From a virus, in UHGV virus genome UHGV-0292601: a DNA stretch of 11,042 nucleotides, one strand, 5' to 3'. Shown piece after piece: positions 852 through 11,042 of the stretch; position 1 is the stretch's first letter; each line of letters starts with the position of its first letter. The position numbers and the translations under genes are program-made. A model generated the notes under the pieces. It was not told the origin of the DNA. It saw only the letters and a list, made by a program, of their open reading frames with translations, and made no database searches.

Positions 852-3800
852 ATGGGTAAAGGCAGCAGTAAGGGGCATACCCCGCGCGAAGCGAAGGACA
901 ACCTGAAATCATCCCAGATGCTGAGCGTGATAGACGCCATCAGTGAAGGGCCGATTGAAGGTCCGGTGGACGGATTAAAAAGTGTGCTGCTGAACAGTAC
1001 GCCAGTGCTGGACAGTGAGGGGAATACCAATATCTCCGGCGTCACGGTGGTGTTCCGGGCAGGTGAGCAGGAGCAGACACCGCCGGAGGGATTTGAATCC
1101 TCCGGCTCCGAGACGGTGCTGGGTACGGAAGTGAAGTACGACACGCCGATTACCCGGACCATCACGTCTGCAAACATCGACCGTCTGCGCTTTACCTTCG
1201 GTGTGCAGGCACTGGTGGAAACCACCTCAAAGGGGGACCGGAATCCGTCGGAAGTCCGCCTGCTGGTTCAGATACAGCGTAACGGTGGCTGGGTGACGGA
1301 AAAAGACATCACCATTAAAGGCAAAACCACCTCGCAGTATCTGGCCTCGGTGGTGGTGGATAACCTGCCGCCGCGCCCGTTCAACATCCGGATGCGCAGG
1401 ATGACGCCGGACAGCACCACAGACCAGCTGCAGAACAAAACGCTCTGGTCGTCATACACCGAAATCATCGATGTGAAACAGTGCTACCCGAACACTGCAC
1501 TGGTCGGCGTGCAGGTGGACTCGGAGCAGTTCGGCAGCCAGCAGGTGAGCCGTAATTATCATCTTCGCGGGCGCATTCTGCAGGTGCCGTCGAACTATAA
1601 CCCGCAGACGCGGCAATACAGCGGTATCTGGGACGGAACGTTTAAGCCGGCATACAGCAACAACCCGGCCTGGTGTCTGTGGGATATGCTGACCCACCCG
1701 CGCTACGGCATGGGGAAACGTCTTGGTGCGGCGGATGTGGATAAATGGGCGCTGTATGTCATCGGCCAGTACTGCGACCAGTCAGTGCCGGACGGTTTTG
1801 GCGGCACGGAGCCGCGCATCACCTGTAATGCCTGGCTGACCACGCAGCGTAAGGCGTGGGATGTGCTCAGTGATTTCTGCTCGGCGATGCGCTGTATGCC
1901 GGTATGGAACGGGCAGACGCTGACGTTCGTGCAGGACCGACCATCAGATAAGGTGTGGATCTATAACCGCAGTAATGTGGTGATGTCGGATGATGGCGCG
2001 CCGTTCCGCTACAGCTTCAGCGCCCTGAAGGACCGCCATAATGCCGTTGAGGTGAACTGGATTGACCCGAACAACGGCTGGGAGACGGCGACAGAGCTTG
2101 TTGAAGATACGCAGGCCATTGCCCGTTACGGTCGTAATGTCACGAAGATGGATGCCTTTGGCTGTACCAGCCGGGGGCAGGCACACCGCGCCGGGCTGTG
2201 GCTGATTAAAACGGAACTGCTGGAGACGCAGACCGTGGACTTCAGCGTGGGCGCAGAAGGGCTTCGCCATGTACCGGGCGATGTCATTGAAATCTGCGAT
2301 GATGACTATGCCGGTATCAGCACCGGTGGTCGCGTGCTGGCGGTGAACAGCCAGACCCGGACGCTGACGCTCGACCGTGAAATCACGCTGCCATCCTCCG
2401 GTACCACGCTGATAAGCCTGGTTGACGGAAGTGGTAATCCGGTCAGCGTGGAGGTTCAGTCCGTCACCGACGGACTTAAGGTGAAAGTGAACCGGGTTCC
2501 TGACGGCGTTGCAGAATACAGTGTGTGGGGGCTGAAGTTGCCGACGTTGCGTCAGCGCCTGTTCCGCTGTGTGAGTATCCGTGAGAACGATGACGGCACG
2601 TATGCCATCACTGCCGTGCAGCATGTACCGGAAAAAGAAGCCATCGTGGATAACGGGGCGCACTTTGACGGCGACCAGAGCGGCACGGTGAATGGTGTCA
2701 CGCCGCCAGCGGTGCAGCACCTGACCGCCGAAGTCACCGCAGACAGCGGGGAATATCAGGTGCTGGCGCGCTGGGACACGCCGAAGGTGGTGAAGGGCGT
2801 GAGCTTCCTGCTCCGTCTGACCGTAACAGCGGATGACGGCAGTGAGCTGCTGGTCAGCACGGCCCGGACGACGGAAACCACATACCGCTTCACGCAACTG
2901 GCGCCAGGGAACTACAGGCTGACAGTCCGGGCGGTAAATGCGTGGGGGCAGCAGGGCGATCCGGCGTCGGTATCGTTCCGGATTGCCGCCCCGGCAGCGC
3001 CGTCGCGGATTGAGCTGACGCCGGGCTATTTTCAGATAACCGCCACGCCGCATCTTGCCGTTTATGACCCGACGGTACAGTTTGAGTTCTGGTTCTCGGA
3101 AAAGCGGATTACCGATATCAGGCAGGTTGAAACCACAGCCCGCTATCTTGGTACGGCGCTGTACTGGATAGCCGCCAGTATCAATATCAAACCGGGCCAT
3201 GATTATTACTTTTATATCCGCAGTGTGAACACCGTTGGCAAATCGGCATTCGTGGAGGCCGTCGGTCGGGCGAGCGATGATGCGGAAGGTTACCTGGATT
3301 TTTTCAAAGGCAAGATAACCGAATCCCATCTCGGTAAAGAGCTGCTGGAAAAAGTTGATCTGACGGAGGATAACGCCAGCAGACTGGATGAGTTTTCGAA
3401 AGAGTGGAAGGACGCTAACGATAAATGGAATGCCATGTGGGGCGTCAAAATTGAGCAGACCAAAGACGGCAAACATTATGTCGCGGGTATTGGCCTCAGC
3501 ATGGAGGACACGGAGGAAGGCAAGCTGAGCCAGTTTCTGGTTGCCGCTAACCGTATCGCGTTTATTGACCCGGCAAACGGGAATGAAACGCCGATGTTTG
3601 TGGCGCAGGGCAACCAGATATTCATGAACGACGTGTTCCTGAAGCGCCTGACAGCCCCCACCATTACCAGCGGTGGCAGTCCTCCGGTATTTTCCCTGAC
3701 ATCAGACGGAAAGCTGACCGCTAAAAATGCGGATATCAGTGGTAGTGTGAATGCGAACTCAGGAACGCTCAACAATGTCACGATTAACCAGAACTGTACG

Positions 3801-4265
3801 ATTAAGGGCATGCTGGAGGCGACTCAGGTCAGAGGTGACTTCGTTAAAGCTGTATCCAAATCATTTCCGAAACAGGCTGGTACGTGGGGTAACACGGAAA
3901 CGCCAAACGGGACGGTTACAGTCACCATCAGCGATGATCATAACTTTGACCGTCAAATCATTATTCCGCCCATTATCTTTAACGGAATAGCGTATAGCGA
4001 TCCGGGAAGTGGTAATAACCCGGGAGGTACAAGATACACGGGTTATGGTTTTGAAGTTCGCAAAAACGGTGTATTAATCGCATCCAGAGAAACTAAAGGG
4101 GCCATTCCCGGTAGCTACAGTGCGGTTATTGATATGCCGAGTGGCAGGGGAAGCGTCACTCTGGAGTTTAAGGTTTTCCATAAAGGCAATCAATGGGCAG
4201 GTAATATCACCGACTGTACGGTGATTGTGACCAAAAAAGCCGCTTCCGGCATCAGTATTCGTTGA
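852..4265 (+). CDS. J: Tail tip / host specificity protein J (central tail fiber)
   Basis: 1137-aa ORF with a GAGG Shine-Dalgarno at 845-848. The N-terminus [20 protein letters not shown]… and most of the length are near-identical to lambda gpJ as I recall it. The last ~150 codons diverge and become AT-rich. Confidence 0.95.
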
Positions 4266-4960: not shown

Positions 4961-4988
4961 AGCCCGCCGGTTCAGGCGGGCTTTTTTG
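4961..4988 (+). terminator. Rho-independent terminator downstream of lom
   Basis: Hairpin AGCCCGCC (4961-4968) / GGTTCA loop / GGCGGGCT (4975-4982), followed by TTTTTT. Confidence 0.6.
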
Positions 4989-4998
4989 TGGGGTGAAT

Positions 4999-6759
4999 AT
5001 GGCAGTTAAGATTTCAGGTGTACTGAAAGACGGCACAGGAAAACCGGTACAGAACTGCACAATCCAGCTGAAAGCAAAACGTAACAGCACCACGGTGGTG
5101 GTGAACACGCTGGCCTCAGAAAATCCGGATGAAGCCGGGCGTTACAGCATGGACGTTGAGTACGGTCAGTACAGCGTTATTCTGTTGGTGGAGGGATTCC
5201 CGCCGTCACATGCCGGGACCATCACCGTGTATGAAGATTCCCGACCCGGTACGCTGAATGATTTTCTCGGTGCCATGACGGAGGATGATGCCCGTCCGGA
5301 GGCTCTGCGCCGTTTTGAACTGATGGTGGAAGAGGTGGCGCGTAACGCGTCCGCGGTGGCACAGAACACGGCAGCCGCGAAGAAGTCAGCCAGTGATGCC
5401 GGCACATCTGCCAGTGAGGCGGCAACCCATGCGACTGATGCTGCAGGCTCAGCGCGTGCAGCCAGCACGTCAGCCGGACAGGCCGCGACGTCGGCTCAGG
5501 AGGCGTCTTCCAGCGCAGGAACGGCATCAACAAAGGCCACTGAAGCATCAAAAAGTGCTGCCGCTGCAGAGTCCTCAAAAAGCGCGGCGGCCACCAGTGC
5601 CGGTGCCGCGAAAACGTCAGAAACGAATGCTGCAGCGTCACAACAATCAGCAGCCACTTCTGCATCCACCGCGACCACGAAAGCGTCAGAAGCTGCCTCC
5701 TCAGCCCGGGATGCGTCGGCTTCAAAAGAGGCGGCAAAATCATCAGAAACGAACGCATCATCAAGCGCCAGTAGTGCCGCTTCCTCGGCAACGGCGGCAG
5801 GAAATTCCGCGAAGGCGGCAAAGACGTCTGAGACAAACGCTAAGTCCTCTGAAACGGCAGCGGAACAGAGTGCCTCAGCTGCGGCAGGCTCAAAAACAGC
5901 GGCTGCATCATCTGCCAGTGCCGCGTCAACAAGTGCCGGGCAGGCCTCAGCCAGTGCCACCGCCGCCGGAAAATCGGCAGAAAGTGCTGCATCGTCCGCT
6001 TCAACAGCCACAACGAAGGCTGGCGAAGCCGCTGTACAGGCCAGCGCAGCAGCGAGGTCTGCTTCCGCAGCGAAGACATCCGAGACGAACGCGAAAGCGT
6101 CGGAAACCAGCGCAGAATCCTCAAAAACGGCTGCCGCATCGTCCGCCAGTTCGGCGGCGTCATCGGCATCATCTGCGTCTGCTTCAAAAGATGAGGCGAC
6201 CAGACAAGCGTCCGCAGCGAAGGGCAGCGCCACGACAGCATCCACGAAGGCGACAGAGGCAGCTGGCAGTGCGACGGCGGCAGCACAGAGCAAAAGTACG
6301 GCGGAATCCGCGGCAACGCGCGCCGAGACAGCGGCAAAACGGGCAGAGGATATTGCATCCGCCGTGGCGCTTGAGGATGCGAGCACGACGAAAAAGGGGA
6401 TAGTACAGCTCAGCAGTGCGACCAACAGCACTTCCGAGTCACAGGCGGCAACGCCAAAAGCCGTTAAGGCCGCGTATGACCTGGCTAACGGGAAATACAC
6501 CGCACAGGATGCAACGACAGCACAGAAAGGGATAATCCAGCTAAGCAGCGCGACCAACAGCACATCTGAAACGCTTGCCGCGACACCAAAGGCAGTAAAA
6601 ACAGCCTATGACAATGCTGAGAAACGTCTGCAGAAAGATCAGAACGGTGCGGATATCCCTGGCAAAGACACCTTTACGAAAAATATTGGTGCCTGCCGTG
6701 CCTTCGGTGGGTCAGTAAGCACAACAACAGGAAACTGGACGACTGCACAGTTTATCTAG
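4999..6759 (+). CDS. stf: Side tail fiber protein Stf, N-terminal and shaft part (ends at an in-frame TAG)
   Basis: MAVKISGVLKDGTGKPVQNCTIQLKA… matches the lambda Stf N-terminus. The ORF track starts at GTG 4993, but ATG 4999 gives the lambda-like start. A long Ala/Ser/Thr-rich shaft is followed by two copies of the conserved GI(V/I)QLSSATNSTSE…ATPKAVK tail-fiber repeat. The frame stops at TAG 6757-6759 and reopens immediately in the same frame. Confidence 0.85.
   Translation: MAVKISGVLKDGTGKPVQNCTIQLKAKRNSTTVVVNTLASENPDEAGRYSMDVEYGQYSVILLVEGFPPSHAGTITVYEDSRPGTLNDFLGAMTEDDARPEALRRFELMVEEVARNASAVAQNTAAAKKSASDAGTSASEAATHATDAAGSARAASTSAGQAATSAQEASSSAGTASTKATEASKSAAAAESSKSAAATSAGAAKTSETNAAASQQSAATSASTATTKASEAASSARDASASKEAAKSSETNASSSASSAASSATAAGNSAKAAKTSETNAKSSETAAEQSASAAAGSKTAAASSASAASTSAGQASASATAAGKSAESAASSASTATTKAGEAAVQASAAARSASAAKTSETNAKASETSAESSKTAAASSASSAASSASSASASKDEATRQASAAKGSATTASTKATEAAGSATAAAQSKSTAESAATRAETAAKRAEDIASAVALEDASTTKKGIVQLSSATNSTSESQAATPKAVKAAYDLANGKYTAQDATTAQKGIIQLSSATNSTSETLAATPKAVKTAYDNAEKRLQKDQNGADIPGKDTFTKNIGACRAFGGSVSTTTGNWTTAQFI
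5341..6390 (+). repeat. Ala/Ser/Thr-rich low-complexity coding repeats in the Stf shaft
   Basis: Degenerate reiteration of units such as AAKTSETNA, SSASSAASSA and TKATEAA at the protein level. The GC-rich GCN/TCN codon runs generate long spurious ORFs in other frames and on the - strand. Confidence 0.7.
6391..6612 (+). repeat. Tandem duplication of the tail-fiber repeat (two ~132-bp units)
   Basis: Unit 1 is 6391-6480 (KKGIVQLSSATNSTSESQAATPKAVKAAYD). Unit 2 is 6523-6612 (QKGIIQLSSATNSTSETLAATPKAVKTAYD). Confidence 0.8.
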
Positions 6760-6798
6760 TGGCTGGATTCTCAGGGAGCATTTAACCATCCCTACTGG

Positions 6799-8070
6799 AT
6801 GTGCAAGGGTTCCTGGTCTTATGGCAATAATAAAATCATTACTGATACTGACTGCGGTAATATTCATCTCGCCGGAGCTGTCATTGAAGTAATGGGGATA
6901 AAGTCAGCGATGACGATCCGCATTACCACACCGACCACCTCCACTGGTGGTGGAACAACTAACGCCCAGTTTACCTATATTAATCACGGAACAGATTATT
7001 CACCTGGCTGGCGAAGGGACTATAACTCCAGAAATAAGCCAACGGCATCAGAGATCGGGGCGTTACCGTCAGGTGGAACAGCAGTATCATCAGTTAATCT
7101 GGCTTCAAAAGGTCGGGTAACCGCGCTGACAGACAATACGCAGGGGGCAACAGGTCTTGAGTTATACGAGGTGTATAACAACGGATATCCAACAGCGTAT
7201 GGAAATATCATTCACCTGAAAGGGATGACAGCCGTTGGCGAAGGTGAGTTACTCATCGGCTGGAGTGGTACAAGCGGTGCTCATGCTCCGGCATTTATTC
7301 GTTCACGACGGGATACGACCGACGCAAACTGGTCGCCGTGGGCGCAGCTTTACACCTCGGCTCATCCTCCTGCAGAGTTTTATCCAGTCGGTGCACCAAT
7401 CCCGTGGCCATCAGATACCGTTCCGTCTGGTTATGCCCTGATGCACGGGCAGACTTTTGACAAATCTGCCTACCCGAAACTTGCAGCCGCTTATCCGTCA
7501 GGCGTGATCCCTGATATGCGTGGCTGGACGATTAAGGGCAAACCTGCCAGTGGTCGTGCCGTATTGTCTCAGGAACAGGACGGCATTAAATCGCACACCC
7601 ACAGCGCCAGCGCATCCAGTACGGATTTGGGGACGAAAACCACATCGTCGTTTGATTACGGCACTAAATCCACGAATAACACCGGGGCTCATACGCACAG
7701 TCTGAGCGGCTCTACAAGCTCGGCCGGAGCACACTCGCACGTTGATGGTCGCAGGTTTAATACAAGCACTTTTAAAGACACCTATCAGTATGGTTCTACA
7801 GCTGTCGGAAGTAACTCATACCAGGTACAAGGGGCGGTTGGTCTGGGCATTGGCACGATGGCGAATACGAACTCTGCTGGCGCGCATACCCACTCACTGT
7901 CCGGCACTGCTGCAAGCGCAGGTGCACACGCACATACTGTCGGTATTGGTGCTCATACGCACTCCGTTGCGATTGGTTCACATGGACACACCATCACCGT
8001 TAACGCTGCTGGTAACGCGGAAAACACCGTCAAAAACATCGCATTTAACTATATTGTGAGGCTTGCATAA
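6799..8070 (+). CDS. stf: Side tail fiber protein Stf, C-terminal part (same frame as 4999..6759; sense codons run from 6760)
   Basis: In frame with the upstream stf ORF ((6799-4993) is divisible by 3). The 13 codons from 6760 to 6798 contain no stop. The C-terminal ~230 aa (…[19 protein letters not shown]…GAHTHSLSG…[22 protein letters not shown]) match the lambda Stf C-terminus, including the His-X-His repeats. The stop TAA 8068-8070 overlaps the tfa ATG (TAATG). Confidence 0.8.
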
Positions 8071-8654
8071 TGACATTCAGAATGAGTGAACAAGCACGGA
8101 CCATAAAAATTTATAATCTGCTGGCCGGAACTAATGAATTTATTGGTGAAGGTGATGCATATATTCCGCCTCATACAGGTCTGCCAGCAAACAGTACCGA
8201 TATTGCACCACCAGATATTCCTGCTGGCTTTGTGGCTGTTTTCAACAGTGATGAGGCATCGTGGCATCTCGTTGAAGACCATCGGGGTAAAACGGTTTAT
8301 GACGTGGCTTCCGGCGACGCGTTATTTATTTCTGAACTCGGTCCGTTACCGGAAAATGTTACCTGGTTATCGCCGGAAGGGGAGTTTCAGAAGTGGAACG
8401 GCACAGCCTGGGTGAAGGATACGGAAGCAGAAAAACTGTTCCGGATCCGGGAGGCGGAAGAAACAAAAAACAGCCTGATGCAGGTAGCCAGTGAGCATAT
8501 TGCGCCACTTCAGGATGCTGTAGATCTGGAAATCGCAACGGAGGAAGAAACCTCATTGCTGGAAGCCTGGAAAAAGTATCGGGTGTTGCTGAACCGTGTT
8601 GATACATCAACTGCACCTGATATTGAGTGGCCTACGAACCCTGTCAGGGAGTAA
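8070..8654 (+). CDS. tfa: Tail fiber assembly protein Tfa
   Basis: 194-aa [57 protein letters not shown]… near-identical to lambda Tfa as I recall it. Its start overlaps the stf stop, consistent with translational coupling. Confidence 0.9.
8489..8610 (+). repeat. Direct repeat, copy 1 (tfa 3' region)
   Basis: About 120 bp matching 9538..9659 at an estimated 85% identity (for example TATTGCGCCACTTCAGGATGCTGTAGATCTGGAAATCGCAACGGAGGAAGAAA versus the same with one mismatch at 9547-9599). Confidence 0.85.
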
Positions 8655-8708: not shown

Positions 8709-9377
8709 CTATTTTTTCCCTGAAGCGGAAAACATTACTACAGTACCTTGAACCTTGGTTTTAACATTCTCGAAATGCTCTGAGAGTATATGTGTTAAGC
8801 CTTCTTCGGAATCTTTTGTGTTTGAAAAGATGCCTTTCTGATTGTAAATGCGCATCAGTTTTTGACCGAAGCTATTGTGCACAACTCCATCGCCAAGAAT
8901 TGTGGCTCCGTATAGAGTTCCATCGTCAGTTAAGGCCTGCGCCGCATTGCGTATTACACAGCTTTTTGTAGATATATTTCCAGGCAGGCAGTGAAGAAGG
9001 TAAAACATGGAAATGGAATCAAATTGACCATGTAACGCCGCGGGATAAGGTTCAAAAACATCATGGCTAATTTTATGTTTAATTTTTGATTCCCCAGCCC
9101 TTGTAGATGCCGCGTTCAGGCTAGCTTCGTTCAAATCCATTAAAGATATCAGACTACTCTCAGGTACGTGAGTAAGGTAAAACCCAGTTCCAACACCAAT
9201 ATCCAGATGGTTGTTACCTAAATGTTCCAGAAAGTGTGGAAGAAGGTGTTCCTTTGTAGGACATCCCCATGCAAGCCGATTTGATACTCCCAAAACCCAC
9301 CAGTCATAAAGCTTTAGGGTAAGTGGTGTGTAAATTTTAGCCCCATCATCTGTGTTTTTTTTCATTAATTTCACCAT
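8709..9377 (-). CDS. Class I (Rossmann-fold) SAM-dependent methyltransferase, likely small-molecule or protein methyltransferase; phage cargo (moron) gene
   Basis: 222-aa ORF with the motif order typical of this fold: motif I LDIGVGTGFY, an acidic residue ending beta-2 (LMDLNE), motif II FDSISMFYLLHCLP, and motif III LTDDGTLYGATIL. I see no DNA-methyltransferase DPPY or PC motifs. Its position between tfa and a tfa remnant recalls the putative methyltransferase ybcY between tfaD and tfaX in the E. coli K-12 DLP12 prophage; that equivalence is from memory and unverified. A GGTGA Shine-Dalgarno better serves the second ATG (codon 5, base 9365), so the true start may be there. Confidence 0.75.
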   Translation of the reverse strand: MVKLMKKNTDDGAKIYTPLTLKLYDWWVLGVSNRLAWGCPTKEHLLPHFLEHLGNNHLDIGVGTGFYLTHVPESSLISLMDLNEASLNAASTRAGESKIKHKISHDVFEPYPAALHGQFDSISMFYLLHCLPGNISTKSCVIRNAAQALTDDGTLYGATILGDGVVHNSFGQKLMRIYNQKGIFSNTKDSEEGLTHILSEHFENVKTKVQGTVVMFSASGKK

Positions 9378-9433: not shown

Positions 9434-9739
9434 ATGCTGCCGCAACATAGCGATATTGAAATAGCCTGGTATGCTTCGATACAACAGGAGCCGAATGGCT
9501 GGAAGACCGTCACCACACAGTTCTACATCCAGGAATTCAGTGAGTATATTGCGCCACTGCAGGATGCTGTAGATCTGGAAATCGCAACGGAGGAAGAAAG
9601 ATCGTTGCTGGAGGCATGGAATAAATATCGGGTATTGTTGAATCGAGTTGATACATCAGTAGCTCTGGGTATGAAGCTGTTTGTAACTCATGTTACAGTA
9701 ACAGTCATTACTATCTCGAAGGTGCAAAATGTATATTGA
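9434..9739 (+). pseudogene. Truncated tail fiber assembly (tfa-like) remnant with an unrelated N-terminus
   Basis: 101-aa ORF whose central segment [38 protein letters not shown] duplicates Tfa residues encoded at about 8497-8610. The N-terminal 37 aa and the C-terminal tail show no Tfa similarity. An AAGGGG Shine-Dalgarno lies 5 nt upstream of the ATG, so it may still be translated. Confidence 0.55.
9538..9659 (+). repeat. Direct repeat, copy 2 (inside the tfa remnant)
   Basis: See copy 1. The two copies are in the same orientation and flank the - strand methyltransferase gene. Confidence 0.85.
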
Positions 9740-9847: not shown

Positions 9848-9863
9848 GGAAGGTGCGAACAAG
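9848..9863 (+). repeat. IS5 left terminal inverted repeat
   Basis: GGAAGGTGCGAACAAG; one mismatch to the reverse complement of the right end. Confidence 0.9.
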
Positions 9864-9870
9864 TTCCTGA

Positions 9871-10896
<1,026 letters not shown>

Positions 10897-11026
10897 AAAC
10901 TGGGGATAACGCCTTAAATGGCGAAGAAACGGTCTAAATAGGCTGATTCAAGGCATTTACGGGAGAAAAAATCGGCTCAAACATGAAGAAATGAAATGAC
11001 TGAGTCAGCCGAGAAGAATTTCCCCG

Positions 11027-11042
11027 CTTATTCGCACCTTCC
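11027..11042 (+). repeat. IS5 right terminal inverted repeat
   Basis: CTTATTCGCACCTTCC, the reverse complement of GGAAGGTGCGAATAAG. Confidence 0.9.

Follow-up and report, generated by a model that had tools for sequence, protein, structure and literature searches.

An amber codon within a lambda-type side tail fibre gene of a lambda-like Escherichia coli prophage

The best-described counterpart of the locus reported here is the side tail fibre gene (stf) of phage lambda. A frameshift in lambda stf keeps the side fibres from being made and assembled; these fibres accelerate adsorption 10-30x but are dispensable (PMC12617516). The gene that we have analysed belongs to the same family as stf of lambda PaPa and Ur-lambda, occupies the same J-lom-stf-tfa position and encodes a homologous N-terminal collar (9E7M/9MGH). 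As in lambda PaPa, one small mutation splits stf into two open reading frames (ORFs), with side fibres expected to be lost and J-mediated infection to be kept (PMC12617516). However, while the lesion in lambda PaPa is a frameshift, the one described here is an amber substitution at codon 587, and the downstream part of the gene is still in frame. The Stf of Ur-lambda has 774 residues. In contrast, the Stf encoded here is longer (1,023 residues), and its middle resembles Mu S and P1 S'.

Fibres of other phages share parts of this protein. The block around the stop (...NGADIPGKDTFTKNIGACRA...WTTAQFI[E/S]WL[D/E]...) is conserved in Mu S/S' (8JU3, 5YVQ), P1 S' and P2 H, where it is continuous in one chain. 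In contrast to the present gene, these are myovirus fibres, and the block is part of an invertible segment in Mu and P1. The DNA analysed here contains neither an invertase nor an inverted second copy. The last ~230 residues of Stf match the receptor-binding tip of T4 gp37 (PDB 2XGF, E 1.8e-86), HxH repeats included. However, the distal fibre of T4 is a separate product joined to gp36, while here the equivalent is the C-terminal part of a single Stf. The nearest relatives are in E. coli RM10042 (WP_089585292.1) and strain A8 (WP_230047279.1), whose genes have the same length, context and domain order and differ at 20-21 of 3,072 bases. The side tail fiber protein of phage PhiR26_1 also agrees in length, context and domain order and is more divergent (~155 bases). 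In contrast to the gene analysed here, codon 587 reads GAG in all three, and the protein that they encode is full-length. Since the deposited PhiR26_1 record is that of a complete phage genome and gives E. coli K-12 MG1655 as the host, this type of phage can be functional; no paper on the ECOR-derived PhiR phages was found in the literature.

The stf locus and its neighbourhood

The window, by which we mean the whole stretch of DNA that was analysed (11,042 nucleotides), carries the following features around the fibre gene.

144-791: gene for gpI, identified by Pfam
852..4265, plus strand: gene for gpJ, the central tail tip or host-specificity protein (1,137 aa, intact), with six Pfam domains specific to J, one of which is the C-terminal receptor-binding domain PF12421
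4335..4934, plus strand: lom, for an Ail/Lom outer-membrane protein (PF06316, E 1.5e-120), in the lambda position between J and stf
4961..4992, plus strand: terminator-like hairpin and T-run between lom and stf, an 8-bp stem with 7 GC pairs followed by TTTTTTGT
8070..8654, plus strand: tfa, for the tail fibre assembly chaperone (PF02413 Caudo_TAP, E 3.5e-45), annotated as tail fiber assembly protein in homologues
8709-9377, minus strand: class I methyltransferase gene
9434-9739: second tfa, truncated
9848-11042: IS5-like element, at whose last base (terminal inverted repeat) the window ends exactly

Near-identical loci with the same I-J-lom-stf-tfa-methyltransferase order are present in RM10042, A8 and PhiR26_1. 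Beyond the methyltransferase gene, all three run into an alpha/beta hydrolase gene, and for RM10042 and PhiR26_1 the stretch that was fetched extends past this gene to ompT. On its sequence, the element is a lambda-like E. coli prophage of the type that is integrated next to ompT at the DLP12 position. The exact Lom protein of the window is widespread in E. coli prophages.

The domain organisation of Stf was established on the intact orthologue, in which Pfam identifies PF08400 (phage_tail_N, the prophage tail fibre N-terminal domain) at residues 1-134 with an E value of 1.4e-71, two copies of PF03406 ending at residue 546, a Collar domain (PF07484) at residues 798-845 and a Phage_fiber match (HxH repeat) at residue ~893. 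Residues 1-94 match the collar chain of Ur-lambda Stf (9E7M/9MGH, E 5.3e-52), and the middle of the protein, on both sides of the stop, matches the Mu fibre S (PDB 8JU3, E 8.4e-49). The N-terminal collar domain, the place after J and lom and before tfa, and the gp37-like C-terminal tip are all those of a lambda-type Stf, but the uninterrupted full-length frame of such a gene is broken by the TAG at codon 587. By ancestry, as judged from sequence comparison, the split gene is a lambda-type side tail fibre gene, and as written it is a disrupted allele. At its 3' end, the TAA of stf overlaps the ATG of tfa (TAATG; junction sequence GCATAATGACA), and tfa is therefore probably translationally coupled to stf.

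A single reading frame with one internal stop

The disrupted gene itself consists of the following parts.

4999..6756, plus strand: 5' part of stf, codons 1-586, encoding the collar domain, an Ala/Ser-rich shaft and two Phage_fiber_2 repeats
6757..6759, plus strand: amber codon TAG (codon 587), which arose from GAG (Glu) via G->T at 6757 according to the alignment to three homologues
6760..8070, plus strand: 3' part of stf, codons 588-1023 and TAA, encoding a Mu S-like domain, a Collar domain, a T4 gp37-like receptor-binding tip and HxH repeats
6799..6801, plus strand: first ATG in frame downstream of the stop, a Met codon that is there incidentally (...PYWMCKGSW...) and not a gene start

In the list of ORFs, this region appears as two pieces, 4993..6759 and 6799..8070. 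The initial annotation had read them as one stf frame from ATG 4999 to TAA 8070 with a single amber codon, which is confirmed both by translation and by the existence of intact homologues of the same length (3,072 nt). From ATG 4999 to the TAA at 8068-8070 there is a single frame of 1,024 codons, composed of 1,022 sense codons, one internal stop (TAG 6757-6759, codon 587) and the terminal TAA. The first start of the upstream piece is GTG 4993, and it is ATG 4999 that the annotation of the RM10042 orthologue uses. After the TAG, the frame stays open for 436 codons, an outcome to which base composition assigns a probability of ~2e-9. Since, in addition, none of 20,000 shuffles remained open over these 436 codons and the two remaining frames here contain 11 and 29 stops, the open frame downstream of the TAG is not due to chance. 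The 3' part of stf is intact, but untranslated unless the amber codon is read through. The predicted products are a truncated protein of 56.9 kDa (586 residues) and, for full-length Stf, one of 102.5 kDa.

Homologues treat the whole region as one gene. In RM10042 and A8, stf is a single 3,072-nt CDS, equal in length to 4999-8070, and intact 3,072-nt copies are also present in RM11911 and TK3046; in PhiR26_1, the annotated start of the gene is a GTG that lies 6 nt further upstream. When the intact orthologue is aligned to Mu S, it runs unbroken along one chain (8JU3) across the site, the stop falling ~50 codons inside the aligned block. Similarly, when 100 aa with the site at their centre were used as a query, 57 phage records matched over at least 80% of them, lambdoid Stf, P2 H, P1 S' and Mu S/S' among these records, and each of the matches listed is one uninterrupted piece. 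Mu S and all intact homologues have an internal Met at the position of ATG 6799, and no Shine-Dalgarno-like match is found in the 20 nt upstream of this codon. Together with the sense codon found at position 587 in the homologues (below), these observations uphold the original view that the two ORFs are one fibre gene split by a nonsense codon. Homologues that naturally end at this point, followed by a separate gene with its own ribosome-binding site at 6799, would have spoken for two genes, and this is not the arrangement that we see.

Origin of the amber codon

When the 121 nt around the stop were aligned with three homologues, all three had GAG where the window has TAG, and relative to RM10042 this is the only difference within the aligned 121 nt. 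A 61-nt query centred on the stop matched at 768 places, spread over 672 of 5,426 complete E. coli genomes. Not one of these places is identical to the 61 nt of the window, the best matches differing by one base. The codon at the site was also read in 96 other loci, comprising viral contigs and one genome contig from a scan with the codon wildcarded as well as the loci retrieved for the other comparisons: it is GAG in 95 and GGG (Gly) in one, and TAG in none. Scans of the genome, viral and metagenome collections found no exact copy of the TAG-bearing 33-mer, and neither the truncated N-terminal products (586 aa and 588 aa) nor the J protein of the window have an exact match on record. In an alignment with 40 full-length homologues, every base of the 3,072-nt gene except T6757 is shared by at least one of them. 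The initial annotation had named CAG and TGG as examples of a sense codon that TAG might replace, but the actual sense codon is GAG (Glu). GAG is thus the reconstructed ancestral codon 587, the TAG allele being private to the window. This E587amber allele occurs in none of the collections searched, and this kind of event is well known.

The remainder of the gene indicates how old the change is. Compared to RM10042, 21 codons of the window stf differ, namely 19 within codons 3-211, the stop itself and a synonymous difference at codon 993; the comparison with A8 gives nearly the same pattern. On the 3' side of the stop, there is a single synonymous difference in 1,311 nt and not one indel relative to RM10042 and A8, which argues that the lesion is very recent. 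As in a recent pseudogene, the orthologues have a sense codon at the site and there is no secondary decay downstream. We conclude, with a probability of roughly 0.8, that the lesion is a private and very recent nonsense mutation, a G->T transversion at 6757 that converted Glu-587 (GAG) to amber on an otherwise standard allele. Three readings had been offered originally, namely an inactivating mutation, a fibre that depends on a suppressor and a sequencing error. The first is favoured over the other two with the same confidence, while for the second nothing beyond the amber codon itself was found to call for it.

The main rival reading is a sequencing or consensus error, with GAG at 6757-6759 and an intact stf in the true genome, which we consider unlikely. 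It would account for a single base that is private to the window, in a gene that otherwise agrees with intact alleles in length and is near-identical to them. Moreover, the last base of the window is exactly that of the IS5-like element, which suggests a short-read draft contig, not a finished genome. However, substitution errors in short-read consensus sequence are rare, and the alignment with A8 contains 118 mismatches and 0 gaps over 9,301 nt, so the assembly is not noisy or indel-prone. Collapsed paralogous fibre genes would not help either, since they would import an existing allele and no homologue has a T at the site.

We regard as very unlikely that an amber-suppressor tRNA in the host restores a full-length, working Stf with Gln, Ser or Tyr at position 587. 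That the stop is an amber codon, that the part downstream of it is fully intact and that position 587 tolerates substitution (Gly in one homologue, Ser in Mu S) would all suit such a host. However, there is no tRNA gene within the window, and the window sequence is present in none of the 5,426 complete E. coli genomes, a set in which common laboratory strains should be represented. To our knowledge, K-12 supE strains do not have this J-stf region at DLP12, and natural isolates rarely carry amber suppressors. The substitution is also of the wrong kind for classical mutagen-induced ambers, which are transitions from CAG or TGG and not a GAG->TAG transversion. Finally, the base after the stop is U (TAG-T), and U after UAG favours termination, so that this would be a poor context for suppression. 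We give even less credence to an amber codon that is real and leaky, or suppressed, in the natural host, with full side fibres on a minority of virions; if this were true, there would be a built-in mixed virion population with two adsorption modes.

Least probable of all is that there are two real genes, or that programmed readthrough or reinitiation gives a short and a long product by design: in two draft assemblies, gene callers did mark a 423-aa product whose start corresponds to ATG 6799, but no homologue has a stop at codon 587 (768 E. coli places; 96 loci), ATG 6799 has no upstream Shine-Dalgarno sequence and the stop sits well within the block aligned continuously to Mu S. In both of these assemblies, unrelated DNA extends upstream up to window position 6791/6792, and they are therefore rearranged remnants and not a conserved two-gene layout. 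For the same reason, we rejected the 423-aa ORF as a trace of TAG alleles. Programmed readthrough was rejected because the stop is unique to the window and the RNA there folds no better than shuffled sequence, with -25.5 kcal/mol for the segment 6730-6830 and a mean of -25.65 for its shuffled versions (z = 0.05), which is not an unusual structure.

Predicted consequences for the fibre and the virion

If Glu-587 has indeed been lost to a nonsense mutation, translation in a host without a suppressor would end after 586 residues. The resulting fragment would retain the collar and the shaft but none of the distal domains (Mu S-like, Collar and T4 gp37-like receptor-binding tip). The trimers of such fibres are thought to fold starting from the C-terminal end, assisted there by Tfa, which makes the 586-residue fragment unlikely to form fibres. 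Any virions would be expected to have no side fibres and, since J is intact and has its receptor-binding domain, to adsorb via the J tip only, as lambda PaPa does. Because the stop of stf overlaps the start of tfa (TAATG), expression of the coupled tfa may drop as well, through lost coupling and polarity.

For annotation, this implies that both ORFs should be recorded as one disrupted stf (pseudogene, E587amber) instead of two genes, and host-range prediction for this prophage should assume J-only adsorption without side fibres. The E587amber allele would be a clean natural counterpart of the stf defect of lambda PaPa, revertible by one base.

Other stf copies are disrupted or rearranged as well. 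The copy in 2014C-3599 is frameshifted and that in L107 is split, and the two draft assemblies with rearranged remnants described above (L004 and L005) also belong here. The RefSeq name "phage tail protein" was considered as a marker of such pseudogenes and discarded, the three genes checked being intact and one of them lying in a P2-like context. Shortened frames occur in 10 of 70 related loci, and these are a mix of P2/Mu-type architectures and true disruptions.

The fibre module around the stop

The block of the side tail fibre gene stf that surrounds its in-frame TAG (window ~6600-7080) is homologous to Sv', the variable, invertible-segment part of the genes for the tail fibres of P1 and Mu. 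Its homologues are listed below.

Homologues of the stop-region block
P1, AF234173.1 32856-33143
Mu and D108, S/S'

Whereas the corresponding fibre part lies in an invertible segment in P1 and Mu, neither an invertase gene nor an inverted second copy of the block was found within the window, and the fibre module of this prophage is therefore fixed.

Two draft E. coli assemblies (GCA_902838585.1 and GCA_902840185.1) retain only the 3' part of stf, from "...YW|MCKGSW" on, and the 423-aa ORF called there by gene callers is the same ORF as in the window.

Remnant loci, with their junction at window 6791/6792
L004 1-290
L005 1-130

In L004, the contig of which extends far enough upstream, an apparent tail-fibre-assembly gene ends ~190 nt upstream of the junction. 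The two stf pieces look like remnants left by recombination at the edge of a fibre module.

An exact 30-nt E. coli-type stf motif is also present at positions 561-590 of a contig labelled "MAG: Bacillota bacterium" (JAEWTL010000011.1, locus L098), which is probably mis-binned or contaminating enterobacterial phage sequence.

Upstream of stf, an element lies in the intergenic region that separates it from lom.

4961-4992, strong terminator-like hairpin (8-bp stem with seven GC pairs, then a T-run)

Since this hairpin ends only ~7 nt before the stf ATG, stf transcription probably depends on readthrough; late transcription under antitermination, of the lambda kind, is one way in which this might happen.

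A second tfa copy and a methyltransferase gene

Downstream of stf, sequence related to the tail fibre assembly chaperone gene tfa occurs twice, and an intact gene lies between the two copies on the opposite strand.

8489-8609 and 9538-9658, tfa-copy repeat pair
8709-9377 (-), class I SAM-dependent methyltransferase, YbcY-like (222 aa, intact)
9434-9739, second, truncated tail-fibre-assembly ORF (101 aa, Caudo_TAP match)

The Caudo_TAP match of the 101-aa ORF is limited to profile positions 75-121, and its RefSeq homologues are flagged as an incomplete pseudogene. A 121-nt segment of this ORF is ~90% identical to the matching part of tfa in E. coli strain A8, which carries a near-identical intact prophage locus. 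The reciprocal comparison agrees, and the two tfa copies are thus diverged repeats. The methyltransferase gene, which is conserved in related prophages and in phage PhiR26_1, looks like cargo (a "moron").

The window end and a mosaic patch

An insertion sequence occupies the end of the window.

9848-11042, IS5-like element (1,195 nt; 16-nt terminal inverted repeats and a transposase)
9916-10896, DDE transposase of this element (326 aa)

The terminal inverted repeats, 16 nt each, are GGAAGGTGCGAACAAG and CTTATTCGCACCTTCC. The last base of the element is the exact end of the window, so that the window probably represents the whole of a short-read contig that broke off at a repeat. In the alignment with strain A8, homology ends at window 9846, ~77 nt before the alpha/beta hydrolase gene, next in line in intact loci, would be reached at its 3' end, which places the IS5-like element in the intergenic region.

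At the other end of the window, within gene I, megablast similarity to A8 is lost over ~200 nt (344-545), with identities of 95% and 98.7% on either side. This segment is a small mosaic patch, typical for lambdoid tail genes.
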